DNA of 64,000 nt from NCBI GenBank assembly GCA_963703285.1, contig OY969807.1, forward strand, positions 1,600,001 through 1,664,000, in the 5' to 3' direction. The position numbers and the translations under genes were made by a program. The notes below the pieces were generated by a model. The model searched no databases. It saw only the letters and a list, made by a program, of their open reading frames with translations, and was not told the DNA's origin. This DNA comes from an uncultured Nitrososphaerota archaeon. GTDB lineage: Archaea > Thermoproteota > Nitrososphaeria > Nitrososphaerales > Gagatemarchaeaceae. Shown here piece after piece: positions 27,269 through 63,310 of the stretch; position 1 is the stretch's first letter; each line of letters opens with the position of its first letter.

Positions 27269-27353
27269 GCGGGGGTCGCCCAGCCTGGTCAACGGCGCGA
27301 GGCTCAGGACCTCGTCCCTTAGGGGTTCGTGGGTTCGAATCCCACCCCCCGCA
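27269..27353 (+). tRNA. tRNA-Leu(CAG), intron-free; integration target
   Basis: GCGGGGG/CCCCCGC-A, CGAGG-CTCAGGA-CCTCG, long variable arm, GTTCGAAT; 85 nt. Confidence 0.95.
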
Positions 27354-27362
27354 CCTTATGCC

Positions 27363-28601: not shown

Positions 28602-28680
28602 TTATGGCAAGAATCTGCTCCATGTCTTCCCTTCTTACGAGCACGAACTCATCTTTTGAGACGGTCTTCGATTGACTCAT
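28555..28680 (-). CDS. Small hypothetical protein (41 aa) convergent with the integrase
   Basis: Manual translation MSQSKTVSKDEFVLVRREDMEQILAIIKRLEGQLDTSRRAS; TTTAAG about 25 nt upstream. Confidence 0.35.
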   Translation of the reverse strand: MSQSKTVSKDEFVLVRREDMEQILAIIKRLEGQLDTSRRAS

Positions 28681-28713
28681 GCCAGACTTGGCGATGGCAG
28701 CTTAAAACACAGG

Positions 28714-29628: not shown

Positions 29629-29752
29629 ACCCATACAGGATGAATGAGTATTTAACGGGAGCCGAGTCATGCAGGTCAAGTCCCCCAATCGTCACTGCTT
29701 TTTGCTCACCACTCTGCTCCTTGCGTTATAAGCAACGGCCTGCTCGGAGGGC

Positions 29753-41757: not shown

Positions 41758-42944
41758 ACCAGGTCGAGCAGACGCGCATCCTCGCCGATGACGCGCGCGA
41801 GGGTGTCGTTGTCGACGAGGAGCTTGATTCGTTTCGTCCTGCCCCTCCTCCCCTTGCTGACGACGGCTGCGTCGATGAGCCCGAGCACGTCCAGTTCCGC
41901 TAGTATGCCGCTAACCCTTCTCTGTGTGAGGACCTCCACGCTCGATTTCCTCGCGAGGTTGGTATAGGCAAGGTAGACCTCCCCCGTGTTCGTCCCGCCG
42001 GGGAACTTCGAGGTTGCAATGATGATGACCTTCGTCTGGAGCGGGAGCGAGTGAAGAGCTTCCTCGACCGTGTCTCGCTCGATTTTGTCCGAGGCCTTGC
42101 GGATGCTCTCTTCGTCCACCAGCTGACGGCCTTCGCGCTCGGCGACTTCGCCGGCCACTCTCAGCAGGTCGACCGCCCTTCGGGCGTCCCCGTGTTCTGA
42201 CCCGGCCAGCGCTGCGCACAGGTTGATGGCTGATTCTGGTACCACCCCGGGCTTGAACGCTACCTTGACTCTCCCGGCGAGAATCGAACGCAGCTCTTCT
42301 GTGGTGTACGGCGGGAAGACTAGCTCCTCTTCGCCCAGGCTGCTCAGCACCCTCGGGTCGAGCGACTCCTTGAATCTCAAATCGTTCGAGATTCCTATGA
42401 TCGTCAGGAAGCCCGGGGCGACCTGCTCGCCAGCCCTCGTGAACTGGTAGAGGGTGTCGTCATCGGAGTTGACCAGATAGTCAATCTCGTCCAAGACGAG
42501 GATGAAGCGGATAGCGTGTTTGGAGATTGTCTTGAAGATGCGTTGGACGACTTCGGCTATGGAGAGTCCGGTGAGCGGTATCTTCTTGTCCTCGTCCAAG
42601 GGAAGGCTCTCGGCAATCTTGGCGAGCGTGAGGTATTGGTTCCTCGCCAGCCTGGAGTTCACGTACGCCGTAACTATCTGTTTCGATTCGTCCTGATTCT
42701 CGAGCTTGCCGACGACCAGCCTCGCCACGGCCGTCTTTCCGGTCCCTGTCTTACCGTAAAGCAGGACGTTTGATGGTTTGGAACCGAGAAGAGCCGGAGC
42801 AAGTATCTGTGCCACGCTAGCTATCTGCGTCTCTCTGAAAGGCAGGTGGTCGGGGACAAACTCGGTCGATAGAGCCTTCCTGTCCTGGAAGAGGACCCTG
42901 CCTTGCTTCGTCTTGTTGAAGATGGCGTCGACGGCGTCGGCCAT
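41754..42944 (-). CDS. cdc6: Cdc6/Orc1 replication initiator
   Basis: YGKTGTGKT, LDEID, ISN, FPPYT, GDARRA, C-terminal wHTH with GRRGRT. Confidence 0.95.
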   Translation of the reverse strand: MADAVDAIFNKTKQGRVLFQDRKALSTEFVPDHLPFRETQIASVAQILAPALLGSKPSNVLLYGKTGTGKTAVARLVVGKLENQDESKQIVTAYVNSRLARNQYLTLAKIAESLPLDEDKKIPLTGLSIAEVVQRIFKTISKHAIRFILVLDEIDYLVNSDDDTLYQFTRAGEQVAPGFLTIIGISNDLRFKESLDPRVLSSLGEEELVFPPYTTEELRSILAGRVKVAFKPGVVPESAINLCAALAGSEHGDARRAVDLLRVAGEVAEREGRQLVDEESIRKASDKIERDTVEEALHSLPLQTKVIIIATSKFPGGTNTGEVYLAYTNLARKSSVEVLTQRRVSGILAELDVLGLIDAAVVSKGRRGRTKRIKLLVDNDTLARVIGEDARLLDLV

Positions 42945-43176: not shown

Positions 43177-44457
43177 TTGAGTATGAAGAGATCCGGCCTG
43201 ACCGTGGCGGCAATGGCCCTCTTGCTGATAGTGATCATAGTCGTGTCCTCGGTGGCTGTTGTGGCTGCCTTCATGGGTGGCGCGGGAAAGACCACCACCT
43301 CCTCGAGCTCGTCCATGAGTTCGTCCACGAGCGCCAAGGACGGGCTGCGGTTGAGTCTGAACGCGACGGTTTCAGAGACGGGCTCCAGCGACCGCATAGC
43401 GATCAGCATCTCGGACTTCAACACGCTCTCTACGGCTAACACGCCTGCGATTGTGGGAATGCCCTCCGTCGGAGGCACGGCGCTTGGTCTCGACCCGTGC
43501 AGCCAGCTCCCTCTGGGGTTCGCGGTAGCAGAGGGGAACTACGGTGCGAACAACGTCTCTGAGGCGTCGCCCCTGAGCCTTTGGCAGCCCGGGACCTACA
43601 TGTGCCCCGCAGAGTTCGCGGTCGACTACTTCTCGTTCTCACCGCTCAGCGACAACGTAACGCTCTACAGCCCCCAGCCCTCCGGGTCGGGCAGCTCTAC
43701 GGTCCCCACGCCAATGTGGACCGCCCCCGACGCCTTCAACCAGAGCTTCTCCGGATACTGGACGGGAGGCAGCGAGGCTTCGCTTCAGAGCGGCGCATTT
43801 AATGCCTTCCAGCCGGGAATCTATACGCTGGTGGGAGGGGACGATTATGGTCAGCTCGTGTTTGTCCACGTCGTCTTGTCTTCCCAGGCCACGGTCACTT
43901 CGACCACCGGGCAGTCGAGCAGCTCGGTGAGCACTACGGTGCCGTCGGGCGGTCAGAACATCTCGGTCGCCTCGCAGTACGGGCTAAGGCTCATGGTGAA
44001 CATGAACGCGACGGAGATTGTTCCTGGCGAGTCGGTCCAGGTGAACTTGACCGAGTTCAACACGCTTCCCAGGGTCAACAACGTCTCGGCGTCCGGGGAT
44101 TGGCCGGTAGGGGTCGCGCTCGGCCCGTGCGAGAACGAGTTCGACCAACCCTTCGGGATCGCAGTCTACGCCGGGCACGTTGACGCGCAGAATCTCTCTC
44201 AGGGTCAGCGGGTGGACATATTCCCGGCTGTGGCCTGCCCGATGTACATCAGGCTGGTCACGGGGTACGAGTTCCAGCCCCAGAGCAACCTGGCTGTGGT
44301 CCTGCCAGGGTCGGCTACGCCGTCGCCGCTGGTCGGGAGCGTGGTCCTCAGCATGAGCTACTCACCTCAGGCCCAACCGCTGCCCCCTGGCGTCTACACC
44401 GTCGTAGCTGCTGATGAATGGGGCGCCTTGGCTTTCCTCTACTTCCAGGTCAACTGA
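43177..44457 (+). CDS. Secreted/membrane-anchored protein with two copies of an unknown two-Cys domain
   Basis: N-terminal TM, Ser/Thr linkers, repeated GLRL...FNTL...PC...P.G.AV..G...CP...PG.YT.V..D.[YW]G.L. Confidence 0.8.
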   Translation: MSMKRSGLTVAAMALLLIVIIVVSSVAVVAAFMGGAGKTTTSSSSSMSSSTSAKDGLRLSLNATVSETGSSDRIAISISDFNTLSTANTPAIVGMPSVGGTALGLDPCSQLPLGFAVAEGNYGANNVSEASPLSLWQPGTYMCPAEFAVDYFSFSPLSDNVTLYSPQPSGSGSSTVPTPMWTAPDAFNQSFSGYWTGGSEASLQSGAFNAFQPGIYTLVGGDDYGQLVFVHVVLSSQATVTSTTGQSSSSVSTTVPSGGQNISVASQYGLRLMVNMNATEIVPGESVQVNLTEFNTLPRVNNVSASGDWPVGVALGPCENEFDQPFGIAVYAGHVDAQNLSQGQRVDIFPAVACPMYIRLVTGYEFQPQSNLAVVLPGSATPSPLVGSVVLSMSYSPQAQPLPPGVYTVVAADEWGALAFLYFQVN

Positions 44458-49786: not shown

Positions 49787-49814
49787 TATTCGGACAAAAC
49801 CGTAAATCGAAGAT
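49787..49814 (+). repeat. 28-bp repeated site, copy 1 (degenerate)
   Basis: TATTCGGACAA-AACCGT-AAATCGAAGAT. Confidence 0.65.
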
Positions 49815-49839
49815 GCTTGCCGGCTTGAAACGAAGAGCC

Positions 49840-50829
49840 ATGGAGCGACCGACGAAATTCGCTCTGGATCTAGCGATGGTGGTCTTTGGCCTAGGTCTCC
49901 TTCTCTTCCCGATGGCACCAACACAGGCGATGCAGAACCCTGGTCAGCCGAAGCCGGAGAGCGCGCCCGGCGGTTGCTGTGTTGATTCCGTAACTTTCCA
50001 CTTGACAGGGGCAAAATACGAAGTCGTCGGGGATTATGCTGGTGTGGCGGTTAGCGTGACGAATGGTTGGATCTCCAGCCTAGGGTTGGTCGTCTACGCC
50101 ACGCTCAAATCCGGTGCGAGCACCTACGTAGCGGCAGGCACCGTGACGATCGCCGCAAACGCGACCGCCTCAGTGTTCTGCGTAGACCTCCAGTTCGTTC
50201 CAGCGGGAGCTTACGCCGTCACCTTTGCGGCTGTTACGCTTTCTGATAATGCGGTGTCCGCCCCGACGGCTCCAATCTCGTTGGTCACCAGCGCTGAGTG
50301 GTCGGGTGAGGTCGGCATCTATGCGAATTCGAACAGCGGCAACCAGTTCCGCTTGTCCATAAGCTCGGACCAGGTGTACGTTGGCGACACGATCACGGTG
50401 AACGTCAGCGAGTTCAACACGAACAACGTTGCAAACAACGACACCAGGGCGGACCATTGGCAGATACCGGCAGCCCTGAACTCCTGCCCCAGCACGAACA
50501 TCCTGCCGTTCGGCATTGCAGTCTACAAGGGGTATTACACTGCGGGGAACGTGTCCCAGGGCATTCAGGTCCAGATTTTCCCCCAAGTGGTATGTCCAAC
50601 CGAAGCGACCGCAGTCACTGGGTACCTTATCCTGCCTAACAGCGACACGGCCTTCGTGCTGCCAGGCTTCTCATCGACAGCGATGGCCGCGAGCGTAGAC
50701 ATCGTCAATGGGACCTCCATCGGCATGGGGCAGTCGTTGCCGCTGAATCCGGGTTTCTATACGGTCGTTGCGGCAGACGAATGGGGCACCTTGGCGTTCC
50801 TCTACTTCCAGATCAACGGACTTCCGTAG
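49840..50829 (+). CDS. Secreted protein with the same two-Cys domain as 43177..44457
   Basis: Signal-like N-terminus; C-terminal FNT...PFGIAVYKG...CP...PGFYTVVAADEWGTLAFLYFQ; start 49813 or 49840. Confidence 0.8.
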   Translation: MERPTKFALDLAMVVFGLGLLLFPMAPTQAMQNPGQPKPESAPGGCCVDSVTFHLTGAKYEVVGDYAGVAVSVTNGWISSLGLVVYATLKSGASTYVAAGTVTIAANATASVFCVDLQFVPAGAYAVTFAAVTLSDNAVSAPTAPISLVTSAEWSGEVGIYANSNSGNQFRLSISSDQVYVGDTITVNVSEFNTNNVANNDTRADHWQIPAALNSCPSTNILPFGIAVYKGYYTAGNVSQGIQVQIFPQVVCPTEATAVTGYLILPNSDTAFVLPGFSSTAMAASVDIVNGTSIGMGQSLPLNPGFYTVVAADEWGTLAFLYFQINGLP

Positions 50830-50915
50830 GATAGGTTGGAGATTTATTCCGACCATAGCATTCAAACGCTAACAGAACTCACATGAACACCGGAGTTGGG
50901 GGATTCGGAAGTCTT

Positions 50916-51560
50916 TCATGTGGTGGTACTGGTGGTGCAGAAGAACACGTTCGCGGCGCCCTGCTCGACCTGCGCGCTCGAGAACTGGAGGATGCCGGTC
51001 GGGCTGGCTGGTATGACGACCTGGAGCACTCCGAGCTCGTCGTACGTCCAGTAACTGGTGCTCCCGCAGGGATAGAGCCTCTGGCTGCTGTACAGGATGA
51101 AGTTGAAGACGTCATACTGTCCTGTGGAGTTGGTTATCTTCGACTGGTAGGAACAGTTGCACGCGTTCGTCGCCTCGTAGGTGAAGCCGCCCTCGGCCGC
51201 GATGAACTTGGGGTTCGACTCTATGGTGGAGTCGACGATGTAGTTGGCGGGCGTGACCGGGACCGGGCACGCGTCGAGAGGGAAGAAAGCCTGCGTGCCG
51301 TTCGGGTATGTCACGGAGTATCCCTCCCACGTTGAGTTGGAGTAGCTGCTGAAGTCCGAGTCCGGCGGGACCTGCTTGAGGCAGCTGTCGTAAGCGGGTT
51401 GGGTGAGCGTGGAGGTGCGCGTGATAGTCTCGGTTGTGGTGGTTGTCGTGGTCTCAGGCGGCTTGGTGAAGACGAGCAGCACGCTCGCAGATATCAGCAC
51501 CCCGGCTATGATGATCGCCGCGACGACGGCCAGATAGCCTCGGGTCTGCTGGCTGCTCAT
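50916..51560 (-). CDS. Membrane-anchored Cys-rich secreted protein
   Basis: N-terminal TM AAIIIAGVLISAS, Thr linker, six Cys. Confidence 0.75.
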   Translation of the reverse strand: MSSQQTRGYLAVVAAIIIAGVLISASVLLVFTKPPETTTTTTTETITRTSTLTQPAYDSCLKQVPPDSDFSSYSNSTWEGYSVTYPNGTQAFFPLDACPVPVTPANYIVDSTIESNPKFIAAEGGFTYEATNACNCSYQSKITNSTGQYDVFNFILYSSQRLYPCGSTSYWTYDELGVLQVVIPASPTGILQFSSAQVEQGAANVFFCTTSTTT

Positions 51561-51583
51561 GAGAATCGTGGGAAAATCTGGCG

Positions 51584-51611
51584 TTTTGTGATTAATAGTT
51601 TTGTCCGAACG
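51584..51611 (-). repeat. 28-bp repeated site, copy 2
   Basis: CGTTCGGACAA-AACTAT-TAATCACAAAA; 7 nt after the upstream stop codon. Confidence 0.85.
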
Positions 51612-51618
51612 GACGTCC

Positions 51619-52032
51619 TTAGATTCCTCGGCCGAGCTTCTCGCTGACTACGGTTGATAGATAGTACGTGCCATCGACAATCTCAGGGCTGAGCAGGATT
51701 ACGAGGCTGCAGAGGCTGAGGAGTATGATGGCCAGACCGGGGATGATGAAAGAGGTGGTGTACCCCGTGGTCCCGATAAGGTACTGGTACGGACCGAGCA
51801 CCAGTGTTGAGAAGTAGTATCCGTGACTCTGAGACGAATAGCTCCCGCCCCAGTTGAAGAGAGCGAGCGCTATGGAGTTGAAGCCGGTGTAGTGGCCGTT
51901 GTTTGGACAGTTACCGTAAAGCCCGGAACAGATGACCCTAGTCGAGTATGGGATTATCGGCGCAAAGAACGCAAAGAGCGTCGCGAGGATGCTCGCGGCG
52001 GCGCCCCAACGAAGGCGACTCTTCCATCCCAT
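51619..52032 (-). CDS. Hypothetical membrane protein
   Basis: Two hydrophobic segments around a Cys-pair loop; fills the space between repeat copies 2 and 3. Confidence 0.7.
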   Translation of the reverse strand: MGWKSRLRWGAAASILATLFAFFAPIIPYSTRVICSGLYGNCPNNGHYTGFNSIALALFNWGGSYSSQSHGYYFSTLVLGPYQYLIGTTGYTTSFIIPGLAIILLSLCSLVILLSPEIVDGTYYLSTVVSEKLGRGI

Positions 52033-52048
52033 AATGCTGTTCGGGTGG

Positions 52049-52076
52049 GTTCGAGATTAATAGTTTTGTCCGAGCG
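52049..52076 (-). repeat. 28-bp repeated site, copy 3, preceded by a decayed AbrB 3' end (52088-52110)
   Basis: CGCTCGGACAA-AACTAT-TAATCTCGAAC. Confidence 0.85.
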
Positions 52077-52172
52077 TGAGAAACCTGCTACTCCTTCTCG
52101 GTGGCCGGCAATGTCGCTGCACGGTGGACTTCATAATTTACCATCGACTGAGTTCGATAAAATTCTGTTAAA

Positions 52173-52901
52173 TCATCCGGCACGTCTTTCGATAGTTACT
52201 CCAATCGCTTCAGTTCGCTCAGCAAGGGTCGGGTAGAATCTCGTCTGAATCCTGTACCTCATCGCCTTCCTAGTCTTCTCGCTTATCGCGCTCTCCCAAA
52301 GGGACAGGGCGCGTATCAGATCCTCGCCGTTCACGTACCTTGCAGCATCCGCGTCGCAGTTCAGCTCCGTCCGTCGTCTCCAATGAGCGTTGATCAGGCT
52401 GAGAAACGTGGAAGACAACACGAAGATGAGCACGGTAGCGACGCCTACGCCCACTTCCTCAAGGACAGCTGCAGACGCGCTGTAGGGCAGCACAGAAGAA
52501 ATCGTGATCATCAACGCGAGCGTGACAGCGAGGGATGGTAGAGGAATACGCAGGAACCTCCTAACACCGTCGTTCGACTTGATGTGAGAGAACTCGTGCG
52601 CCGCTATGGCCATTCTCTCGCCGTCGTCAAGCTTGTTCCAGTACCATCTCCCGAAGGCAACCCCGCCGGGGAAGCTGAATGCAGAATACGCGCGTCTCGC
52701 GAAGAAGTATCGCTGCTTTCTGTTCAGGCGATTGAGCACACCCATCCGCTCTGCGAGTTCATCCAATTGCGGCGAGTCGAACGGCTCGAGCTTGCGGCGG
52801 AACCTGAGAAATCGATATGCGAGGAAGCTCAAGCGAAGTCCAGCGTCAGTCGACGAAGGATATACGATTTCGTCTCCCTTTCGTGCTTGATTCTTAGCCA
52901 C
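52173..52901 (-). CDS. M48/HtpX-like zinc metallopeptidase
   Basis: AIAAHEFSHI, two TM helices, ELNCDADA, YPTLAER. Confidence 0.8.
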   Translation of the reverse strand: MAKNQARKGDEIVYPSSTDAGLRLSFLAYRFLRFRRKLEPFDSPQLDELAERMGVLNRLNRKQRYFFARRAYSAFSFPGGVAFGRWYWNKLDDGERMAIAAHEFSHIKSNDGVRRFLRIPLPSLAVTLALMITISSVLPYSASAAVLEEVGVGVATVLIFVLSSTFLSLINAHWRRRTELNCDADAARYVNGEDLIRALSLWESAISEKTRKAMRYRIQTRFYPTLAERTEAIGVTIERRAG

Positions 52902-53024
52902 TCGTCAATGCGTTGCAGACTTGAGTATCCCGTGCAGTCCGGCCCCCGCCAGGAGGAGGCCGACAAAAGCCAGCCCGTATTCTATCGGTCCGGGTCCGCC
53001 AATCGAGCTGATTCCGCGGTCGTT

Positions 53025-53855
53025 TCACGTCGCTATGCTTGGGCAAGACCGGCCGCTGTGATTAATAGCTATGTCATGTCCGAACCTGAGAAATCTGCTA
53101 GTCATTCTCGATGACCAGCTTCCCTCTCTTGAGCCTCTGCTGCAGTTCTTGGCCCAGGGTCTCGCAGACGACGATACTTGAGCGCATTCTTGCTTCGACC
53201 GTCGCTGGGGCTCGCGGGCACCCACTCGCAGGCCTACCAGCCAAGGCCGTGAGTCGGTACTTTCGGTTGCGTTCCAGCTAGACGCCGGCGGCGACGGGGT
53301 CGGTGGGGCGTGCGCTGTCGACGCCGTTTGGCCTTCGTCGCGCTTCCTGGCGCTGAACGCCTCGACCGCGAAGATGAGCAGGATGATGGCAGCAACTAGG
53401 ATGTAGTTGAGAGGCGGCGGGAACGCCTCCGAGATCCTACCCAGGAACGGCAGCGAGAAGACGACCAGCCCCTTCACGCACTCGGCGGCGACTGGAGGCC
53501 ACCCGGTCGGCTCGTCGGGTGCCGGGTTCGTTTGCCTGTTGTCGCCCTGCGTTATCAGACCCTCGCTCGTGATGCCGACGACCCTGTGCACTATGACCTC
53601 GCTCGTGCACCCTCCTCCGACGGCCGGCCGCGCGAACACAATCACGTCTCCCACGTGGATGCTGCTGTACTGGATCGGCACGACGACCACTAGGTCCCCG
53701 ACTTCGAGGGTGGGCCTCATGCTGAGGGTTGGGTAGACGTCGTAGACCTGGATGCCACCTATCCGGTCGTTGATGAGGAACGCCGCCCCGGCCACGACGA
53801 GCAGGACGACCACCGCGTAGGCGGCGGCGTGGCTTACCTTGCTCTTCGAGTTCAT
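53025..53855 (-). CDS. Signal peptidase I (Sec11/SipW type); 3' end probably reads through into a remnant
   Basis: SMRPTL, GDVIVF, IVHRV, TQGDN...PD; the last ~70 codons overlap an AbrB remnant and repeat copy 4. Confidence 0.8.
   Translation of the reverse strand: MNSKSKVSHAAAYAVVVLLVVAGAAFLINDRIGGIQVYDVYPTLSMRPTLEVGDLVVVVPIQYSSIHVGDVIVFARPAVGGGCTSEVIVHRVVGITSEGLITQGDNRQTNPAPDEPTGWPPVAAECVKGLVVFSLPFLGRISEAFPPPLNYILVAAIILLIFAVEAFSARKRDEGQTASTAHAPPTPSPPASSWNATESTDSRPWLVGLRVGAREPQRRSKQECAQVSSSARPWAKNCSRGSREGSWSSRMTSRFLRFGHDIAINHSGRSCPSIAT
53054..53086 (-). repeat. 28-bp repeated site, copy 4 (with a 5-nt tandem duplication)
   Basis: GGTTCGGACAT-(GACAT)-AGCTAT-TAATCACAGCG. Confidence 0.75.
53098..53157 (-). 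pseudogene. Remnant of the small AbrB-like gene
   Basis: Translates as GQELQQRLKRGKLVIEND*, versus GQELRQRLKKGKLVIEKD* in 60776..60937. Confidence 0.8.
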
Positions 53856-53975
53856 GTGCACCGGAAGCGTGCTAGTCAGCAGGGGTGGGAGATGAGGTTG
53901 TCGATGGGCTCGTGGGGGCCCTGGGACGTGTAGTCGCCAACGCTTATCTCCAGATAGAGGACGGGCCTCCCTTCC

Positions 53976-55252
53976 TTGAAAGCGGGCGGCGCGCTCCGTA
54001 ACCGGGACTTCGCGCGACTCTTCTTCGCGGGCGCTGCGTCTATCGGGGGATTCTCAATAGGTCAGGTCGCCGTAAATTATCTGGTCTTCACCAGAACTCG
54101 CTCTTCGATAGACCTCGCCGAAGTCGGAGTGGCCTTCACTATCGGCTTGGTCACTCTAAGTCTCTTCGCGGGGACACTTGCCGATAGGCAAGATTGGCGG
54201 GTACTCATGATAGTCTGCGATGTGGTCAGGGCCGCGGCACTTGGCCTCGGGACGCTCTGGCTCCTCTTGATCGGGTTCAACCTGTCGCTGGTCCTCGTGG
54301 TGAGCTTCATTCTCGGCTCGTTCACCGCGTTATTCCAGCCCGCGGAGCGCGCGATGATGCCAACAATCCTGCAGAAGCACCTGCTCGCGGAAGGTAATGG
54401 TCTGGTCCAGCTGACCAGCTCCCTTGCCCAGGCTATCTCGAACGCTCTCGGCGGGGCCCTCGTCGTCGCAGTCGGGGCCATCCTGGCCATTGGATTGAAC
54501 TCCGTAACCTTCCTCGTGTCCGGCCTGCTCATCGTGACGCTGACGATAAGGAGACCGCAGGCGGACCCCGGCGGCAGACCGTCGCATGAAGCGAGGCCCA
54601 GCTTCATCGAGGACACTCGGGAGGGCGCCAGGTACCTGAGGGGCAACAGGCCACTCTTCCTGCTGACGATTTCGGCGGGCTTCGTGAATTTCTTCTTCTA
54701 TATGATGCTCCCCTATTTCGTAATCTACACGACCGACGTTCTGCATGGTGACGCGACCATCTACGGGCTCTTCCTCGGCGCCTTCGCGCTTGGCGCGGCC
54801 CGGGATCGCTGATGGTTGGAAGGTTCGGCATGGTCAAGCGCGCGGGTCTCGTGTGGACGGTTTCCGGGGTGGTGGGTGGAGCCCTTCTTCTATCGCTCAT
54901 ACTCGTCCCCGTCCCGGCGGTTGCCTTTGGAGCTATCTTCGCATTCGGAGTAGTGCTCGGAATCTCCAATACTACCTGGCTCTCGATCGTTCAGATAATC
55001 GTCCCCAACGAGATGCAGGGGCGCTACTTCGGGATCGACCAGCTCGGGAGCGTCGCTCTCCTCCCGGTCGGTCAGGCGCTAGGAGGCCTCGCCATCGCCT
55101 CGTTCGGACTTCCATGGACCTATGAGTTCGCTGGCGGCGCCTTCCTTCTAAGCGGCCTTGTCTTCCTTGGATTCCCCGCGCTCAGGAACCTTGGATACTC
55201 GAGCGGCGCGGAGCACGAGAAGGGAATGGGGCCAGGTTCGGGTCAAAATTGA
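53976..55252 (+). CDS. MFS transporter, split by a 1-nt frameshift at ~54795
   Basis: ORFs 53976..54812 and 54812..55252 are consecutive MFS halves (GTLADRQDWR; VPNEMQGRYFG). Confidence 0.85.
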
Positions 55253-55303
55253 GGGAGCAGACGCATGGCCGAAGGCGGGCGTTCTTTGCTGTTAGGCCAA
55301 GGT

Positions 55304-55612
55304 CTATGGACCGTTGGGAGTGGGCCGGTGTTTCGCAAGAGCCGCTCTTTCTTCCTCACTAATGGAATCCGAGTGTTTGATTAGTTCGTGGACGTAATCT
55401 TCGGCTTCGATCAACATTTTTTTGATTCCGTCCAGTGTCTTCACTTTGGTCATGTGTTCTATGTCATCAGCCAGCCCGATCAAACTCCTTGCCTCAACAA
55501 GGAGATATTTCAACTCTGGGTTCTCACTAGTTGACTTGGATAAGGCTTCGACTACTTGTCTTCGAATCTCTTCAGTCCTATCTTTAGACACTTGTGGCAT
55601 TCGCGTTATCAA
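55304..55612 (-). CDS. Putative immunity protein for the RHS toxin
   Basis: Small helical low-GC ORF overlapping or abutting the toxin stop codon. Confidence 0.6.
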   Translation of the reverse strand: MITRMPQVSKDRTEEIRRQVVEALSKSTSENPELKYLLVEARSLIGLADDIEHMTKVKTLDGIKKMLIEAEDYVHELIKHSDSISEEERAALAKHRPTPNGP

Positions 55613-58569
55613 AGTGTCATTTGAATATAACTAATTCCGTAGTCTTCGAGTGCTTGCCTGAAAGCTTGTCCTGCAAATGTTCCTGACCATGGATTGTCAA
55701 GCAGGATGAACAGAACCCTCGATGTTTGACCGGACATCTGTGCGAGCGCGTACTTGGCCATCTGTGTATCTGCGAAGTCACTGACCGATTGAGAACCGAC
55801 TTTGACGTCAACGCTTATTTCCGTGTCTGGATTGAAGAAATCTGGATAGAGCTTCCCGGCAAAAGTCGGAATCATCTTGCCTTCGATGAACCCAAGGGAT
55901 TTCATCAGTGGCCTCATGAAAGTCTTCCCCCACTCTCCTGTTGCTTGGGAATTGTCGGCTTTGGGACCGAGATCTTCCAGCATTGATGCCATTTCAGTAT
56001 TAACGCTGTCCTGTAGTACGCCGCCTGTTTCGTCCGAAATGGTTGCTTGGACAGGTAGCTCCTCTTGTGCTGCTGCCGCGGCTACCCCTGATATTGCACC
56101 TCCGACAAATGATGATGTTAGCGCAGATTCTGCTACGACCTCGCTTGCATCTGTAATAGGATCCAAACCGAGCTGAAACACATTAGCTATGGTAAGCCCT
56201 ATGACTGCGCTGAGAAGAATTGCTTGGGTCGGGGTCCATGAGAGGGGATTCCACCATGTCAGTCCTGAAGGATCGATTATCGCGAGGGGATTGTCCCGGG
56301 CATAAGCGTAAGCGTTCATGCTTTGTGGGTCCGACTGGACTCCGCCGATTGGGTCTGCCGTTAGGAACTTCCCGGTGCTCGGATTGTAGAACCTTGCGTT
56401 ATCGTAATAGAGGCCGCTCGCCGCGTCGAAGAGCATTCCGGCGTACATGAACTCCTCGCTGCCCGTCGCCCCGTACTGGATGCCGTACGGCACGTAGTCG
56501 CTGCTGAAGACCGGGGAGCCCCCGCTGGTCACTAGCCTCGTGCTCTCGAGCTCGTCCTGGTGGAGGAAGAGCGTCGACGATGTCGTGATGCTGGCCACCT
56601 GCATCCCGCTCGCGTAGGCGTATTTGGTAGCCACGCCCGTCTGGAGGCTCTTCTGGTAGACCACGTTCAGCCCCGAGTAGAGGTAGAGAGTAGTCCCGGC
56701 GCTCGTGGTCTGTTCGACGCGCCTCCCGTCCCCGTCGTAGTAGTTCTGCTGGACCAGCACGCCGTTATCGAACGCCTTCGTCATCTCGCTCTGGGTGTTG
56801 TACTCGTACGTCCAGACGTTGGTTCCATCGTTCTGCATCACGAGGTCGCCGTCTCCGTCGTAGGAGTACGTCGTCGTCCCGCTCGCGGTGGTAGACCTTA
56901 CGAGCTCGTCCATGCTGTTGTAGGTGTACTCGACCGTCGCCGACGAGTTCTGCTCCTTGACCATGTTCCCCGCCGCGTCGTAGGAGTAGGTGGTAGTCCC
57001 CCAGGGGCCTGTCGAGCTGGTGAGCCTGTCCAGCGCGTCGTACCCGAACTTCTCGGAGCCAATCGACATCACGTTGCCGTCTGCGTCGTACGTATACGAG
57101 AGGCTCAGCTCCTGCGTGGACCCCTTCGTGGTCGTGATGCTCGTCGGCTGGTCCATGCTGTCGTAGGCGTAGCTCGTTACCTCCCCGTTGCCGTAGGTTA
57201 TCGCGCTCGATCGTGTCGTCTGGGTTGTAGGTTAACGAGGCGTAGGTCGTCCCGCCGCTGGAGACCTTCGTCACCCTGTCGAGGGCATCGTACGAATATG
57301 ATACCTTGGTGGTGTCTGGGTACGTGATCGACTGCACGTCTCCGTCCACGTTGTAGGCGTACGAGGCGGTGTACGAGGCGGTGTACGAGGCGGTGTACGA
57401 GGCGGTGTACGAGGTACCGCCGATGATGTCGGTCTCGGACGTCTCCTCGTTAAGGGCGTTGTAGGAGTACTTGATCTGGTCGACGCCGTTCGTGACGGTG
57501 AGCTCGTTCCCGTTCTTGTCGTAGGTGTAGCTCGTGCTCGTGCCGTCTGGGTAGTTCACCGTAGCCAGCCGGTAGAGAAAGTCGTAGGAGTACGTCGTGA
57601 CGCGGCCCTCTTCATCCGTCGTGCTGACCACGTTGCCCACGGAGTCGTAGCTGGTCTTCTCGGTCGTGCCGTCCGGGTTGACGGTCTCGACCAAGCGGTT
57701 GAGGTCGTCATAGGAGTAGCGTGTGACTTGGTTCGCATCAGGCCCCACAACCTTCACGAGGTTTCCGGCGCCGTCGTATGTGTATGTGGTCGCGTTGTAG
57801 CCGCTGCCCCAGTACTCCCTGACCGCGACCAGGTTCTGCATGAAGTCGTAGACGTCCTGCGTGACGTGGTCGTCGCCGTCGGTCGTCGTCTCGGTGTTCG
57901 TCGTGTCGTTGTATGCCATTGATTCGTGCGACCCGTTGGGGTTAGTCACCCCGGTCTGCCTCCCGAGGCTGTCGTAGGTGTACCTGTAGGTCGCCCCGTT
58001 CGGCGCCTGTTCCGTCAGGACCTCGTTGAGCCAGTTGTAGGTGTAGTACTCGGCGGAGTAGGGCGCGGAGGGGGAGGAGTACGTCTGCTCTTCCGTGAGC
58101 CTCCCCAGCCCGTCGTAGTAGTACTTCGTCATGTTGCCGCTCGGATTGGTCTCGGTGACTACGTTGCTCGCGTCGTTGTAGGAGTAAGATGTGGTCGCGA
58201 CCACCCCATCGACGGCTGGAGAGGTCTCGGACGTGAGGCGCCCCAGCGCGTCGTACGTGTAGGTAGTCGTGTTCCCCTCGCCGTTGGTCTGGGACGTCAT
58301 ATCCCCGGTCGCGAAGTTGTAGGTGTAGGAGACCGTGTCGTCTGGCGCCGCGTAGCAGTTTGAGGTCCCCGACGAGGTCTCCGAGGTCACGTATGCGCTC
58401 TCGTAGGTCGAGGAGTAGGTGTAGCAGGTCTCGTGGTGAAGCGGGTCCGTCATCGTCTGCACATTAGCGAGGACGTCGTAGGTATAGGAGGTGATGAGCC
58501 ACGTGTTCACGCCGGGGGAGGGACTGTAGAGCTGCGCTTGCCTGAGCACCTCGCTGTTGCTGTAGTATC
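55609..58569 (-). pseudogene. RHS/YD-repeat polymorphic toxin, 5'-truncated, frameshift at ~57205, with a C-terminal PD-(D/E)xK nuclease-like tip
   Basis: Many YxYD..G repeats; RHS core YYDNARFYNPSTGKFLTADP...YAYARDNPLAIIDPSG; tip YPDF...SVDVKVG; in-frame stop just upstream of YYSNSEV with no plausible N-terminus. Confidence 0.88.
57359..57414. repeat. 12-bp tandem repeat GTACGAGGCGGT x4.7 (encodes SYTA repeats in RHS)
   Basis: Perfect repeat units read directly from the sequence. Confidence 0.95.
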
Positions 58570-59335
58570 AGAGTGGATTGCATCGACTGTAGGCCTCCTT
58601 GAATTAGAAGGAATCCTTGCTGGCGCAAGTTTCCTCGCCTATTTTACGTTACACGAACAGAAAGACAAATCCGTTAAGAGATTGGAAAAACTCAGGCTCC
58701 AACGAGTCAGATTAAGACTCTCAGATATGATAAAAGAGAATGCCAATTCTAAGGAGATAACCAAGGAGACCGAAGATAAGTTCCAAAATCTGTTTGAGAA
58801 CGAATACTCCGAAGCCTCTGAACCTTCGGGAACTCTCCGTACGATGGATGCGGCATTTCTATTCTCAGGGGTGCTTCTCTCTGTCGCCGCTCTCATAGAT
58901 TGGGCACAATCTAATCCCTCGCTCGTGCTACCGGCAGGGTCGCTTGTGCCGGTCGAAGCCGAGACTTTCGGGCTCGGGGTGTTACTCCTTGGCGTAGGAA
59001 TCTTCGAACTTGAAGGGCTTCGTAGAATGAGCGACAAGGAGCCAGACCTCGACCCTGCGCCCTTCGGCTATATCCTAATCTTTGGGTTGATATTCGCCAC
59101 CGACGCATATTTCCTATGGTTGACAACGACCTACTATAGCCAGCTCACACAGTTCGGTCAAACCCTCTTCTTTGCTTCTTTCTTGCCGATTGCCGGAATC
59201 ATTCTAGTTATCACGACATGGGAGGACGAAGATTGGAGGCGCATTCTGGGAATGATTCTTTTGTTTGCCCCATATGTGGTATACGCTATTTGGATTCTCG
59301 CCTATTCCTTGAGTTCGGTCGTTCACCTTGGTTAG
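58570..59335 (+). pseudogene. 5'-truncated multi-TM membrane protein, back-to-back with the truncated RHS gene
   Basis: Low-GC reading frame SEWIASTVG... begins at the RHS break; the upstream part of track ORF 58433 is antisense RHS. Confidence 0.55.
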
Positions 59336-59391
59336 CCCTTCGCCAGATACTCGCTCAGTATGTATCGAATCGTCTCCGGTATCGACTTCGA

Positions 59392-59647
59392 TCATGGGGA
59401 TGTCCGACGCATGTCGGAGAGCTCAGTCTTCGCGATAGCTTCGCGCTCTTCGGGTGTCGCAAACGAATCGTGGAAGAAAGAGATGGTCACTGAGGGGTTC
59501 TGCGGATCCGGCATTCTGATTTCGCCGCCGCCCCAGCCGTCGCAGACCTGGGTGAGCAGGACGAGTGCGGAGTAGGACATGCAAACTGTGCCGAGCTCGC
59601 CGAGCTGCCTCGAGTGGCGGCAGTTAGCGCAGGAGGCTTCCATAATC
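59392..59647 (-). CDS. Small Cys-rich hypothetical protein
   Basis: CANCRH...C...CDGW motif; frame stays open for 20 codons after the TGA. Confidence 0.45.
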
Positions 59648-59822
59648 ATGCCTCGCTTCTCTCTGGATGCTCTGTAGTGCGGCGGCTCCATGGCGAACTA
59701 GGTCGGAGGGCTACAAAAGGACCAACGTGTCTTGGATTCGTCTAGTCGCCGACGCTCTAGCCTGTGTAATTCTTCCACTCTGCCACAGGTTAATCGTTAA
59801 GAGCCCCCGATTCCGCTAGAGG

Positions 59823-60059
59823 ATGGAGGGCACCGGGTTGGATACCAGGAGGCTCAAGAATGGTCCCGAAATCGTCTTCCTGCTCGGGCTGATCGGCTTC
59901 CTTGTCTGGCTCTACTGGATGCTCTCCAGCCACCCCGCCCCCAATCCCTTCGTGACCTACACCATTCTCCTGATCTTCGTCTGGCTGATGATAATCTCCG
60001 CCGTCGAGATAGTCTACTCGTTCCGGGCAAGGCGGACCGCCGCGCAAAAGCCGAGGTGA
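59823..60059 (+). CDS. Small two-TM membrane protein
   Basis: 78 aa, two hydrophobic helices, TTAAG upstream. Confidence 0.65.
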   Translation: MEGTGLDTRRLKNGPEIVFLLGLIGFLVWLYWMLSSHPAPNPFVTYTILLIFVWLMIISAVEIVYSFRARRTAAQKPR

Positions 60060-60127
60060 GCCCTAGACGTTGTTCGCGACGAGGATGAAAAGCGCCAGCG
60101 AAGAACACGGCAGGCAGGACACACCTT

Positions 60128-60155
60128 CGTTCGGACAAAACTATTAATCAAAAAC
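60128..60155 (+). repeat. 28-bp repeated site, copy 5
   Basis: CGTTCGGACAA-AACTAT-TAATCAAAAAC. Confidence 0.85.
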
Positions 60156-60186
60156 TCGGAGGAGCGCCTAGCGGGCGCTTTCAGTC

Positions 60187-60684
60187 GTGAACCCCCAGTC
60201 CACCCGGCCCCAACTGGTCATACCCGCGGCGATTATCATAGCGGCCATCCTGATTGCCGTGAGTATATCCGTCGCGGTCGGGGGAGAAAGGACGACGACG
60301 GTCACAGTCACCCCCACGAACTCAACTGGCGAAGTGGTCTACAAGGTGACTTTCCAGCAGGTCCAGTACTGCGGCCTGTACAATATCCTGCCCTGGGCGG
60401 TGACTGTCGGCGGCCTGACGCAGGTCCAGCCGTCCAACCAGACTCTTCCATTGCCGACGAACACGTTCTCCACGGTCGTTCCGGACCAGAGCCTCACACG
60501 GATGACGTTCTACCTCCCCCCGGGCGCCTACAGCTACATCGTGTACGGTGGTTCGGGCAACGGCCCCGGGGGGCAGCTTTACCCGACCAGCGGGACCTTC
60601 CAGGTTGTCGGGTCGAACCTCGTCCTCAACGAGGACGTCTACCTGAGCTTCACGTGCGCGCCGACGACCAGTAGTATTGCATGA
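60187..60684 (+). CDS. Membrane-anchored secreted protein with a thermopsin/S-layer-like beta domain
   Basis: TM AAIIIAAILIAVS (similar to 50916..51560), YKVTFQQ...WAVTV...FYLPPGAYSY...SGTFQV. Confidence 0.7.
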   Translation: MNPQSTRPQLVIPAAIIIAAILIAVSISVAVGGERTTTVTVTPTNSTGEVVYKVTFQQVQYCGLYNILPWAVTVGGLTQVQPSNQTLPLPTNTFSTVVPDQSLTRMTFYLPPGAYSYIVYGGSGNGPGGQLYPTSGTFQVVGSNLVLNEDVYLSFTCAPTTSSIA

Positions 60685-60722
60685 GAGACCAGAAACCCGA
60701 CCTCAGATGCCCAAGACCGGAT

Positions 60723-60756
60723 TTTAGGGCCCTAAACGCGCTTATTAGGCATCTAA
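60723..60756. promoter_or_regulatory. Palindromic operator pair upstream of the AbrB gene
   Basis: TTTAGGGCCCTAAA (perfect palindrome) and TTAGGCATCTAA; degenerate copy at 60997-61030. Confidence 0.6.
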
Positions 60757-60775
60757 ACCAACACCTGGTCGTCAG

Positions 60776-60937
60776 ATGCGCCTGCAGAAGCAGAAGACGC
60801 GGGTCGTCAAGGGCAAGGAGTACTTCCGGTGGACGGTCGTCATTCCTCCGTCCAAGGTCAGGGAGCTCGGATGGAAGGAGGGGCAGGAGCTCCGCCAGAG
60901 GCTGAAGAAGGGGAAGCTGGTCATCGAGAAGGATTAG
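60776..60937 (+). CDS. AbrB/MazE/SpoVT-family DNA-binding protein (53 aa)
   Basis: Manual translation MRLQKQKTRVVKGKEYFRWTVVIPPSKVRELGWKEGQELRQRLKKGKLVIEKD. Confidence 0.85.
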   Translation: MRLQKQKTRVVKGKEYFRWTVVIPPSKVRELGWKEGQELRQRLKKGKLVIEKD

Positions 60938-60948
60938 CGGGCTTCTTG

Positions 60949-60976
60949 CGTTCGGACAAAACTGTTAATGAGAAGT
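60949..60976 (+). repeat. 28-bp repeated site, copy 6
   Basis: CGTTCGGACAA-AACTGT-TAATGAGAAGT; 11 nt after the AbrB stop; no gene downstream on this strand. Confidence 0.8.
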
Positions 60977-61106
60977 AGTGTAGCTTTTCATTGAGATTTA
61001 GGGTTCTAAACTTGGCCATTTGGTATCTAAGATCAATCTACGTCGTCGCTTTCTGATTCTGCTCTGGAAGTGAAAGGGGCGTAAGAACTTACCTATTATG
61101 AATTGT

Positions 61107-61853
61107 CTACTTGATTGCTTTGACTATAGCGGCCAGCTTCTCCTCGAAGTCCTTGGTCTGGAGCAGGTTGCCGATTACTACTAAGTCAGCTCCGGCCCTG
61201 GAGGCTGCCGAGGCGGTTTCTGGGGTTGTGACCCCACCCCCCACGATGAGAAACCCGGGGTACGACGCCCGAACGTCGGCTATCACGCCGGGTAGGATGG
61301 CCCTGTCGGCCCCGCTCCCCGCCTCGAGGTAGAGGAAGCGCATCCCAAGGTAGTGCGCAGCCATGGCGTACATGAGAGCGATGGCGGGCTTGTCGAGCGG
61401 GATGCCCCTCACCTGACCGACGAAGCCGGTCGTGCTGAACTCCCCGAAGACGAGATAGCCCATTGGAATAGCCTCGAGGCCTGTTTTCATGACCTGGATG
61501 GATCCGATGGCCTGGGCGCCGACGATGAAGTAGGGATTTGTGGAATTCAGGAGGGAACTGAAAAGAATTGCATCGGCGTGCGGTGAGATACCTGTGATGT
61601 TGCCTGGAAAGAGGATGACAGGGAGTGTGATGTCACGCTTCAGACGCATCACAACCTCGTCTAAACGTCCCTGATCGGCTATTGTTGAGCCTCCGATGAA
61701 GATGCAGGAGACTCCGAGCTCCTGGACCTTCTTGCCGAGCGCCGCGGCAGCATCTGGAGTGAACTCCTCGGGATCTATCAGAGCGGCTATCAGGGTGCCC
61801 TTCTCCTTCCTCACGCTCAGAAGAGCCCTCTCAGTAGGTCCAGGCTGGCTCAA
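61107..61853 (-). CDS. Geranylgeranylglyceryl phosphate synthase
   Basis: LIDPE, IGGST, ILFPG, SLLNS, YLEAGSGA, VGGG. Confidence 0.92.
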   Translation of the reverse strand: MSQPGPTERALLSVRKEKGTLIAALIDPEEFTPDAAAALGKKVQELGVSCIFIGGSTIADQGRLDEVVMRLKRDITLPVILFPGNITGISPHADAILFSSLLNSTNPYFIVGAQAIGSIQVMKTGLEAIPMGYLVFGEFSTTGFVGQVRGIPLDKPAIALMYAMAAHYLGMRFLYLEAGSGADRAILPGVIADVRASYPGFLIVGGGVTTPETASAASRAGADLVVIGNLLQTKDFEEKLAAIVKAIK

Positions 61854-61856
61854 AGG

Positions 61857-62111
61857 TTACGCACCGGTCTTGGCGAAGTCGTCCACGAAGGTGTTGTAGA
61901 CGTCGATGTCCGGCTTCTGGGTGGCGAACCTGAACTCGCGCCTAAGCTTGCAATTACTGTTTCCGCAGGCCACGACGGTTACGAAATCTTGTGATACTTC
62001 GTCCTGTTGTGATGTGATTCTGACGGCAACAACTCCGCAACGAGGGCAGCTGAATACTTTTGGAAGCGAACGCTTGTTGGCTCGTAGAACTTTCCTTCTT
62101 CTTCTCCCCAT
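61857..62111 (-). CDS. elf1: Transcription elongation factor Elf1
   Basis: MGRRRRK...LPKVFSCPRCG...CGNSNC...IDVYNTFVD; true start at the ATG at 62111. Confidence 0.88.
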   Translation of the reverse strand: MGRRRRKVLRANKRSLPKVFSCPRCGVVAVRITSQQDEVSQDFVTVVACGNSNCKLRREFRFATQKPDIDVYNTFVDDFAKTGA

Positions 62112-62317
62112 TTTGCTCGTCCAAGCCCTTTCACGCTCATATATAATATGGTTTTGCGAGGGAACTGTAGTCAATCGAAGCCCGGGCGAAGCCGATTTCT
62201 TGCAGATAACAGTCCAGAATACCAATATATTATACGGATAGATGCGAGAGTTGCTAAGATGTGTGCTAGACGGGTCCAGAAACACTAATACAGATTCGTA
62301 GATGCAGCTCTGGTCGG

Positions 62318-62674
62318 ATGCCATCTCAACTCGACGACTTCCTCGCGTCGCAGTCTTCGCTCACGCGTGTTCAAATCGAGCGGCTGCTGCTCCAGTTTTC
62401 GCTTCAAAACGACACGTCTGAAGGGGAAAGCAGGCCCAAAATCAGCGGCGTGAGCCCCGGAGCGTACTACCGGGTGCTGGGCCAGGCGAAGTCCAACATA
62501 GATCAGGCGCTCTACACCGTGCTGCTGTGCTCGAGGATTGGAGTGCTCCAGATGGACGATCTGCGGCGCCTGCTGGACCTGGTGAGCAAGGTTCCATCCG
62601 ATGTTGCGGACGTCGAGGCCCAGCAAGTGACCCAGCTCGTCGAGGCCCTCGTGAAGAAGATTGTGATGCTATGA
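62318..62674 (+). CDS. Conserved hypothetical protein (HTH-like)
   Basis: SSLTRVQ...VSPGAYYRVLGQAKSNI. Confidence 0.7.
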   Translation: MPSQLDDFLASQSSLTRVQIERLLLQFSLQNDTSEGESRPKISGVSPGAYYRVLGQAKSNIDQALYTVLLCSRIGVLQMDDLRRLLDLVSKVPSDVADVEAQQVTQLVEALVKKIVML

Positions 62675-62695
62675 TACGCACGCTTATATCATGTT

Positions 62696-63310
62696 GTGTC
62701 ACAGCCCCTTTTCGGGGTCGCGTTGGTCCTTATCGATGATGTAGTCGTCTCCATAGCCGCGGCCGTCACGACTGCGACCCTGGTCGTCCTCGTCGTCCTC
62801 CTCGCGAGGTACAGGGCTCTTGTAAAAGATGCAACCAAGTCTACGGATCTTGCGAAGAACCTCTGGGACGCCATGAATGAGAGGCTCACGACCCAGGACT
62901 CTCGTATCGTCGACATGATGGCGAAGTTCGAGGTGTACTCCGTGAGGAAGGGGGTAGGGCTCCCGCCGCCCGCGAGGCCACCCCCAACGTCCACAAACGT
63001 CCCCAGGTCGCCCGAGACTCGAGCTCAAGAGATGAGACTAGAGACATCACACCCAGTATCACAGGCCTCTCAGGCTCCGTCACAGTCAGGAATCACTACC
63101 AGGGAGAGGGAAAACCAGATTCTGCGCGCCCTTCTGGACGGTCCGAGGACCTCCAACGACATCCGGGCCGTGCTGGATGTGTCTAGGGAGCACAACGCGA
63201 GGCTGCTGAAGGCTCTTTACGGACGCGGGTTACTCCTGCGGAACGACGAGCACAAGCCCTTCGTGTACGAGATAACTGAGGCCGGCCGGCGCTATCTCGG
63301 TGCCGCCTGA
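62696..63310 (+). CDS. Membrane-anchored winged-helix protein
   Basis: N-terminal TM; C-terminal SREHNARLLKALY.RGLL.R...KPFVYEITEAG. Confidence 0.75.
   Translation: MSQPLFGVALVLIDDVVVSIAAAVTTATLVVLVVLLARYRALVKDATKSTDLAKNLWDAMNERLTTQDSRIVDMMAKFEVYSVRKGVGLPPPARPPPTSTNVPRSPETRAQEMRLETSHPVSQASQAPSQSGITTRERENQILRALLDGPRTSNDIRAVLDVSREHNARLLKALYGRGLLLRNDEHKPFVYEITEAGRRYLGAA

Follow-up and report, generated by a model that had tools for sequence, protein, structure and literature searches.

Does a short repeat that separates the single genes of an array mark the points at which those genes were inserted, or the points from which they are transcribed? The question is raised by a 64,000-nt stretch of DNA (the window; bases 1,600,001–1,664,000 of a single 2.25-Mb contig with 60.6% G+C) from a Nitrososphaerota (Thaumarchaeota) archaeon whose relatives include 'Candidatus Gagatemarchaeum'. 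Six copies of one motif lie between 49,787 and 60,975 of the window, and the first-pass annotation had read them as dif-like sites at which a XerA-like tyrosine recombinase inserts and excises gene cassettes. Our analysis indicates that the motif, a 27-mer, is very probably the composite core promoter of a surface-protein regulon. The genes behind it stand in mosaic arrays, and we put it at a little under an even chance that the motif copies also act as junctions for deletion, duplication and exchange. For the statement as a whole (promoter, mosaic arrays and junctions) we estimate a probability of roughly 0.6.

A repeated motif of 27 nucleotides

The window was searched for a 20-mer core, TTCGGACAAAACTATTAATC, with up to 3 mismatches allowed. 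Copies were found at 49789(+), 51590(−), 52055(−), 60130(+) and 60951(+), each with 0–3 mismatches; the same search gave no further copies in the 64 kb and no match in any of 100 dinucleotide shuffles of the window. A sixth copy, at 53054–53086(−), is a T-variant with a 5-nt tandem duplication (GACAT GACAT), which is why the ungapped search missed it. All six copies reported earlier are therefore real, and the consensus and length proposed for them fit the span measured below.

Alignment of 133 non-redundant copies from this genome and its relatives (identical 120-nt contexts merged; copies less than 40 nt from the start or less than 400 nt from the end of a locus left out) revealed a conserved span of about 27 nt, from −2 to +24, which reads cG-TTCGGACAWAACTATTAATC-RnRAA. 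Conservation beyond the 20-mer comprises G at −1 (109/133), A or G at +20 (132/133), a purine at +22 (116/133) and A at +23 (114/133). The flanks outside this span are unconserved, thus indicating that the motif is a discrete element and not part of a duplicated region. Position 9 is the sole polymorphic position (A or T), with 15 A to 1 T in this genome and ratios of 4:14 and 10:18 elsewhere, a skew that fits homogenization within genomes or co-evolution with a factor.

Across the whole genome, 23 copies with at most 3 mismatches were found (17 forward and 6 reverse), compared with none for the reversed pattern. A weight matrix trained on 117 copies from relatives alone recovered 26 sites at a threshold of at least 14 bits, compared with none in reversed controls. 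Crude open reading frame (ORF) calls cover 83% of the genome, and 22 of the 26 sites fall outside them. The majority of the sites fall at 1.28–1.75 Mb. The statement that the housekeeping part is free of copies therefore holds for the 64-kb window, and the genome as a whole contains 26, a number at odds with the single-copy behavior expected of a dif site. The scan of the genome and its relatives that had been suggested as a check revealed a genus-wide motif with many copies per genome: at a tolerance of up to 2 mismatches, 20 of 22 other congeneric genomes contain it, with a maximum of 41 copies, and it is absent from two other genera of the family and 16 further families of the order. When one genome from each of 185,579 species was scanned for exact matches, 75 stretches were returned; wherever their titles name a taxon it is a Nitrososphaerota/Thaumarchaeota group, such as 'Candidatus Gagatemarchaeum stordalenia', and two titles give only 'uncultured archaeon'.

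A variant of the motif, TTCGGACAAAGGTATTAATG, occurs in the genome as an inverted pair, at 1885350–1885376(−) and 2040033–2040059(+). Both flanks are identical and both copies precede the same 188-aa ORF, which describes a segmental inverted duplication with its copies about 155 kb apart. Rfam models at gathering threshold detected only a tRNA, and a scan for sigma-70 promoters and terminators, which is irrelevant to an archaeon, gave no excess.

Position, orientation and downstream genes

For 132 of the 133 aligned copies, an ORF of at least 40 aa begins on the same strand within 130 nt. The ORF start lies 20–39 nt past the 20-mer in 96 of these 132, whereas the distances to ORF starts from 1000 random positions are flat. 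In the window, the distances for the copies at 49787, 51585, 52050 and 60128 are 31 nt (to the in-frame ATG at 49840), 29 nt (ATG), 22 nt (ATG) and 37 nt (GTG). The TATTAAT embedded in the motif likewise begins 28–47 nt before the start codon in 96/132 copies. TATA-like hexamers (TAAATA, TTATAT and TTAAAT) are 16–24 fold enriched in the 60 nt upstream of genes in this genome, peaking at −40 to −26 from start codons with an A-rich stretch and a C ahead of them, and the TATTAAT of the motif shares this zone with the ordinary TATA boxes. The AWAAC that precedes it matches the positions of a B recognition element (BRE). Features of an archaeal core promoter are thus present, namely a TATA box at the usual distance and facing the gene, and an intergenic location. 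The first-pass annotation had allowed that TATTAAT may double as a promoter for the captured gene; from its position and orientation this is very probably so, and as the main function of the motif rather than a side effect. It had also named a fixed distance from transcription starts as evidence that would tell against a dif site, and a fixed distance from gene starts is what we observed.

The downstream genes share a product type. An N-terminal hydrophobic helix, defined as a 17-residue segment of strong hydrophobicity among the first 70 residues, is predicted for 116/132 downstream products, compared with 412/2245 of all crude genes and 54/797 ORFs at random positions. The usual N-terminus consists of a short charged stretch ending in R or K, a helix of approximately 20 residues and a Ser/Thr-rich linker, with a median Ser+Thr content of 28.5% in residues 31–130. 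These products form at least 54 clusters and so are not one paralogue family. Most have no Pfam family. Families were assigned to a PQQ-like beta-propeller, to a MetE-like ORF preceded by a weak copy and to a PMT_2 protein mannosyltransferase, the gene of which keeps the motif in four genomes. The functional coherence of the genes and the conservation of the PMT_2 motif across species are features of a regulon, and 12 loci from relatives showed the same arrangement.

A proposed composite promoter

We propose that the motif is a genus-specific composite core promoter made of four parts, which in the 5′ to 3′ direction would be an upstream cGTTCGGAC, a BRE-like AWAAC, the TATA box TATTAATC and an A-rich proximal element, RnRAA. 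The TATA-binding protein TBP and transcription factor TFB would assemble on the TATA box and BRE, and transcription would start some 20–25 nt downstream to give short 5′ leaders. About nine conserved bases upstream and five downstream go beyond a core promoter. The genome has five TFB genes, so one of these paralogues or a dedicated regulator could read the extra bases. Approximately 26 genes would be co-regulated in this way. Nearly all of their products have the short charged stretch at the N-terminus, a single membrane helix and the Ser/Thr-rich linker described above, and one is a PMT-type protein mannosyltransferase. The cassette-like appearance would arise because the genes stand in co-oriented tandem arrays, each with its own promoter copy. 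The arrays themselves are envisaged as mosaic accessory regions in which gene-sized blocks are gained, lost and exchanged between species. Some of the joints between blocks would be promoter copies, probably formed by homology-driven recombination or slippage and not by a dedicated Xer-type enzyme.

Gene turnover and block boundaries

Comparison of assemblies revealed blocks that are 85–100% identical on one side of a motif copy and unrelated on the other, and these one-sided blocks end at the 5′ edge (−1/−2) or the 3′ edge (+19 to +24) of the motif. Pairs of copies across assemblies share the upstream flank in 42 cases and the downstream flank in 310, and both flanks in only 2. At 85% identity or more, none of six upstream-similar pairs had downstream similarity and two of eight downstream-similar pairs had upstream similarity. 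The proteins encoded behind shared upstream flanks are unrelated, and five assemblies that share one orthologous divergent membrane-protein gene each continue with a different, unrelated first gene. Two loci from relatives (L024 and L094) share 1016 nt of motif–gene–motif sequence at 99.8% identity, with unrelated sequence past the next copy; one of the two loci lacks a 1374-nt unit of motif and gene precisely between two direct copies, in surroundings that are 99.8–100% identical. A further motif-plus-gene unit is 96.3% identical over 1202 nt in two genomes whose PcrB region is only 70.5–76.5% identical, which suggests exchange between species. Stable gene content had been named as a finding that would count against gene capture, and the content behind the motif is unstable. 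The associated claim of gene gain and loss at the site itself survives in part, as the enrichment of block boundaries there is modest when intergenic regions serve as the null.

That test compared distinct alignments and yielded 36 boundaries, of which 11 are in coding sequence, 16 in motif-less spacers and 9 in motif-bearing spacers. Motif-bearing spacers therefore hold 9 of 25 intergenic boundaries, compared with 115/626 intervals (18%) or 27% of intergenic bases, which corresponds to P = 0.03 by intervals or 0.20 by bases. An earlier null of random positions had overstated the enrichment (11/64 vs 1.2% and 46/472 vs 0.9%, the 64-boundary count including reciprocal alignments twice) and is superseded by the intergenic null. 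Such modest values would be expected if the motif were a promoter only, with no role in recombination, and if the breakpoints reflected general accessory mosaicism together with alignments that extend through the invariant 27-mer. Data from the population of the window point the same way: independent contigs bridge the copies at 49789, 51590 and 53054 unchanged, and the only well-supported structural variant, a joint of 57805 to 59530 seen in two runs, lies in an RHS-repeat gene and not at a motif. Contigs of four DNA runs from one study contained no joint between motif copies, although contigs lose rare forms. However, six of the nine boundaries in motif-bearing spacers fall on the motif itself, where approximately 15–20% are expected (P = 6e-4), a concentration that is partly due to alignments running through the 27-mer. 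The precise 1374-nt deletion between direct copies also speaks against a promoter-only reading, as do the window copies at 52055, 53054 and 60951, which have an AbrB-like 3′ end and the motif in common, with similarity halting at the motif; two of these three units have decayed. On balance we consider it unlikely that the motif is a promoter and nothing else.

Several points weigh against the combination of promoter and junctions that we favor. The start codons are crude ORF calls, and by such a call the PMT gene of this genome starts 129 nt downstream of its motif. Some copies precede genes for non-secreted proteins, such as the MetE-like ORF at genome position 321461. The information content of about 40 bits over 27 nt far exceeds what an archaeal BRE and TATA box typically need, which leaves room for a second function. 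Blocks that end exactly at motif edges would fit a recombination site equally well, and we know of no demonstration for this lineage that recombination proceeds over just 27 nt of identity.

Alternatively, the 27-mer may serve as a promoter and at once as a true recombination site, with an enzyme or an unusually efficient short-homology pathway excising and re-inserting units of promoter and gene at any copy. We hold this to be rather improbable; if true, it would amount to an integron-like system of self-expressing cassettes in soil Thaumarchaeota that reshuffles genes for surface proteins and hands them from species to species.

Features expected of a recombination site

The original proposal goes further, making the motif a dif-, pdif- or attC-like site at which a tyrosine recombinase moves gene cassettes, with the promoter as a secondary use. 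Several of the observations above agree with it: the one-sided blocks that end at the motif edges, the exact unit indel of L024 and L094, the 96% identical units that occur in different contexts while core DNA is about 76% identical, the five unrelated first genes behind one orthologue, and the conservation beyond promoter need. Single genes are indeed bracketed by same-orientation copies, and the bracketed units had been described correctly (the 137-aa ORF; the M48 peptidase gene with AbrB remnants; the 165-aa ORF with the AbrB-like gene). Copies were also said to sit, in many cases, about 7–11 nt after a stop codon. The gap is 7 nt for the copy at 51590, 11–13 nt for three others and approximately 70 nt for the copy at 60128, and the measure does not apply to the copy at 49787.

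The symmetry of the motif argues in the opposite direction. In the excerpt of PMC8371274, dif is described as a single-copy site of two 11-nt inverted repeats around a 6-nt spacer, with dyad symmetry stressed. In an 11-6-11 layout, the 133 copies have a mean of only 4.26/11 complementary positions and the consensus has 5/11 (chance P = 0.11); the best of the other arm layouts reached 6/10. The resemblance to the E. coli dif arms noted earlier (7/11 and 6/11) is arithmetically right and weak. Sites of the attC type fold as single-strand hairpins by virtue of an imperfect inverted repeat. DNA folds of the six window copies gave −0.3 to −2.1 kcal/mol, with z values of +0.29 to +1.53 relative to shuffles, so that neither the inverted-repeat arms of a dif nor a hairpin is present.

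A suitable enzyme was not found either. The first-pass annotation had placed the recombinase outside the window, whereas the genome's sole PF00589 protein is encoded inside it, at 27363–28601 (412 aa). Its scores, 96.1 bits with the model of archaeal XerA (NF040815; cut-off 220) and 40.3 bits with that of the integron integrase (TIGR02249; cut-off 265), fall below both thresholds. No protein exceeded the XerA cut-off in any of 23 genomes of the genus, many of which are incomplete (54–96%); in a genome with 22 motif copies that is 77% complete, the best XerA match is 21 bits. The tyrosine recombinase lies 21 kb from the array beside a tRNA-Leu gene, and the one serine recombinase of the genome is far from the array. 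A 455-aa tyrosine recombinase does adjoin one array in a relative (L045), which would favor the cassette reading; it is the end of a 1.4-kb module described below that it adjoins, with no motif there.

The recombinase gene of the window follows directly on tRNA-Leu (CAG; 27269–27355) and is itself followed by a 324-aa ORF and a 642-aa VirB4/TraC/HerA-like ATPase gene (27269–31681 in all). Its product has a C-terminal zinc-ribbon-like CPRC...CPKC. The stretch looks like an integrated mobile element and the recombinase resembles an element integrase; a search for an attR repeat of the tRNA-Leu element at seed 12 found none.

Location provides further evidence. In single-origin archaea, dif is expected in the replication terminus region. 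The array is 7–18 kb from an Orc1/Cdc6 gene (41754–42944, −) and at the maximum of cumulative GC skew (about 1.66 Mb, the minimum being near 0.59 Mb), and probably lies near the inferred replication origin rather than the terminus. The Orc1/Cdc6 gene adjoins a DNA_pol_E_B/metallophosphatase gene (40282–41757). The copy spacings of 465, 1005 and 821 nt agree with the integron criterion of at least two sites less than 4 kb apart, as quoted in the available part of PMC9668308, a criterion that is uninformative on the type of site.

The exchanged units themselves do not have the form of cassettes, since their far (right-hand) ends are not at motifs. Boundaries are equally common in motif-less spacers (16/25), and 88% of downstream genes belong to one functional class, which is typical of a regulon and not of captured cargo. 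The possibility that half-sites occur as products of recombination was rejected: the right half of the motif is never found alone in the genome, and the matches to the left half alone (79, compared with 42 for its reversed pattern) represent degenerate copies or chance. Lacking the features that define the dif, pdif and attC families, the motif belongs to none of them, which removes the false lead of an archaeal dif/pdif system at this locus, and we judge it quite improbable that a recombinase moving cassettes at the motif explains the arrays.

The module mentioned above spans about 1.4 kb and encodes four small ORFs (62, 95, 114 and 97 aa), none of which exceeds a Pfam cut-off. It is 94–96% identical among three assemblies (L016 3439–4847, L042 1458–2877 and L051 2885–4232) and abuts a motif copy in several places. 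The motif was considered as the attachment site of an integrating element and rejected, as neither a motif nor a repeat is present at the far end of the module and none of its genes encodes a recombinase domain. Very improbable, finally, is a mobile promoter, in which the 27-mer would be the outward-facing end of a small mobile module or would spread by itself before unrelated genes: four copies do share at least 150 nt of upstream flank from this module ahead of four different genes, and the same element precedes at least 54 unrelated protein clusters, but the upstream flanks of most copies are unrelated, the module lacks a motif or terminal repeat on its far side, no transposase was found in it, and the motif is below the published length of at least 50 nt (PMC3575422).

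Neighboring genes in the window

Table 1. Motif copies and adjacent genes in the window. Scores are from the weight matrix built from copies of relatives only.
Feature	Coordinates	Strand	Remarks
Degenerate motif copy TATTCGGACAAAACCGTAAATCGAAGA	49787..49813	+	3 mismatches; 21.3 bits; upstream of secreted-protein ORF 49813/49840-50829
338-aa ORF (329 aa from ATG 49840)	49813..50829	+	N-terminal signal-like helix; no Pfam family
214-aa ORF	50916..51560	−	Charged N-terminus, membrane helix, Thr-rich linker; no Pfam family
Motif copy	51585..51611	−	0 mismatches; 50.5 bits; putative promoter of ORF 50916-51560(−)
137-aa membrane ORF	51619..52032	−	Homologue also behind motif in another genome (L001)
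Motif copy	52050..52076	−	1 mismatch; 38.8 bits; putative promoter of ORF 51619-52032(−)
M48 peptidase gene	52173..52901	−	AbrB remnants alongside
Motif copy with 5-nt tandem duplication	53054..53086	−	Frameshifted ORF remnant downstream, then M48 peptidase gene
Motif copy	60128..60154	+	Perfect; 50.2 bits; putative promoter of ORF 60187-60684(+)
165-aa ORF	60187..60684	+	N-terminal membrane helix, Thr-rich linker
53-aa AbrB/MazE-like gene	60776..60937	+	PF04014, E 6.6e-4, below cut-off; own TATA
Orphan motif copy	60949..60975	+	2 mismatches; sole copy of 133 without downstream ORF

The 338-aa protein has a 426-aa paralogue, encoded at 43177–44457 with 80% nucleotide identity in the 3′ part, and an ordinary TATTATAT box takes the place of the motif in front of it. 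Homologues of the 165-aa ORF stand behind the motif in two other genomes (66–68% amino acid identity). A short remnant of an AbrB 3′ end lies just before the copy at 52050, and a 19-codon AbrB remnant (53101–53154) precedes the copy at 53054, which is probably a decayed promoter. An ORF similar to signal peptidase S26 (53025–53861, −) continues in another frame through this remnant and motif copy, and its native 3′ end may have been replaced by an inserted fragment.

A perfect 14-nt palindrome, TTTAGGGCCCTAAA (60723–60736), lies directly upstream of the TATA box of the AbrB-like gene. Behind the orphan copy at 60949 there follows a degenerate AbrB operator region with a second, degenerate form of this palindrome, TTTAGGGTTCTAAA (60997–61010), no gene of its own, and then the convergent PcrB/GGGP synthase gene (61107–61853), which fits an archaeal host. 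The arrangement looks as if a unit had been deleted there. AbrB was considered as a general partner or regulator of the motif and rejected: the genome contains a single full copy besides remnants and one distant relative, and in relatives the AbrB gene is 995 and 4173 nt from the next motif. The AbrB-like gene at 60776–60937 is thus a local neighbor. In L094 (14432–19014, compared with 60128–63310 of the window), the congener's homologue of the 165-aa ORF is followed by a motif that does precede a gene; compared with the window, the PcrB block there is inverted and the AbrB-like gene is absent.

The gene that carries the structural variant encodes a 594-aa RHS-repeat protein with seven repeats (56765–59530) and contains 12-nt tandem repeats at 57356–57415. 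Contigs of two DNA runs skip 57806–59529, and one has a 24-nt deletion at 57359.

Implications

If the motif is a promoter as proposed, it would provide a 27-nt handle on the surface proteome of uncultured, abundant acid-soil archaea, with about 26 genes per genome and up to 41 in a relative. Most of the genes it marks have no Pfam family and are likely to encode anchored glycoproteins, and the mannosyltransferase gene has the motif as well. Under the proposal a dedicated factor should exist, be it a TFB paralogue or a regulator, and the motif would offer a natural strong promoter for future genetics in the lineage. Units that are 96% identical in genomes with approximately 76% identical core DNA point to a fast, partly horizontal turnover of the cell surface.

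Relation to known systems

Full-text searches yielded no paper with a description of the motif in its listed title or abstract, and the word 'promoter' is absent from the paper on the family Gagatemarchaeaceae (PMC10640624). Putative mobile promoters have been defined by at least 80% identity over at least 50 nt in the region −150 to −50 of unrelated genes (Nijveen, Matus-Garcia and van Passel 2012, PMC3575422). Similar upstream sequence before unrelated coding sequences, within a genome and in related taxa, is common to those cases and the motif. In contrast, only 27 nt are conserved here, at about −60 to −25 and with unconserved flanks, which falls short of the length used in that definition, and that study contains no archaeal example with a defined gene class.

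Integrons, for which IntI and clustered attC sites are the defining features, have been reported in archaeal metagenome-assembled genomes of nine phyla (Ghaly et al. 2022, PMC9668308). The window resembles an integron array in that close repeats, 465–1005 nt apart, separate single genes, the content varies and the distance to the next start codon is short. It differs in having no hairpin palindrome and no IntI, in a TATA box at the 5′ end of each gene and in a single class of cargo. With dif and pdif, the motif shares a length of about 28 nt, which can be written as 11-6-11, and the 7/11 and 6/11 matches to the E. coli arms; the missing inverted repeat, the 26 copies, the lack of a XerA and an array beside Orc1/Cdc6 set it apart.

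The closest likeness is to archaeal promoters that combine BRE and TATA box with a regulator site, which the motif matches in its A/T-rich box at TATA distance, its strict gene-facing orientation, its intergenic location, its coherent gene set and its restriction to one lineage. Promoters of this kind reportedly include the glycolytic motif of Thermococcales and, at archaellum operons, the EarA site. The abstract of PMC13286277 mentions EarA. Compared with such regulon promoters, the whole 27-nt span, TATA box included, is near-invariant here in dozens of copies and at least 20 species, and the regulated set would be the anchored surface proteome. Judged by its sequence and setting, the motif is very probably a lineage-specific regulon promoter.

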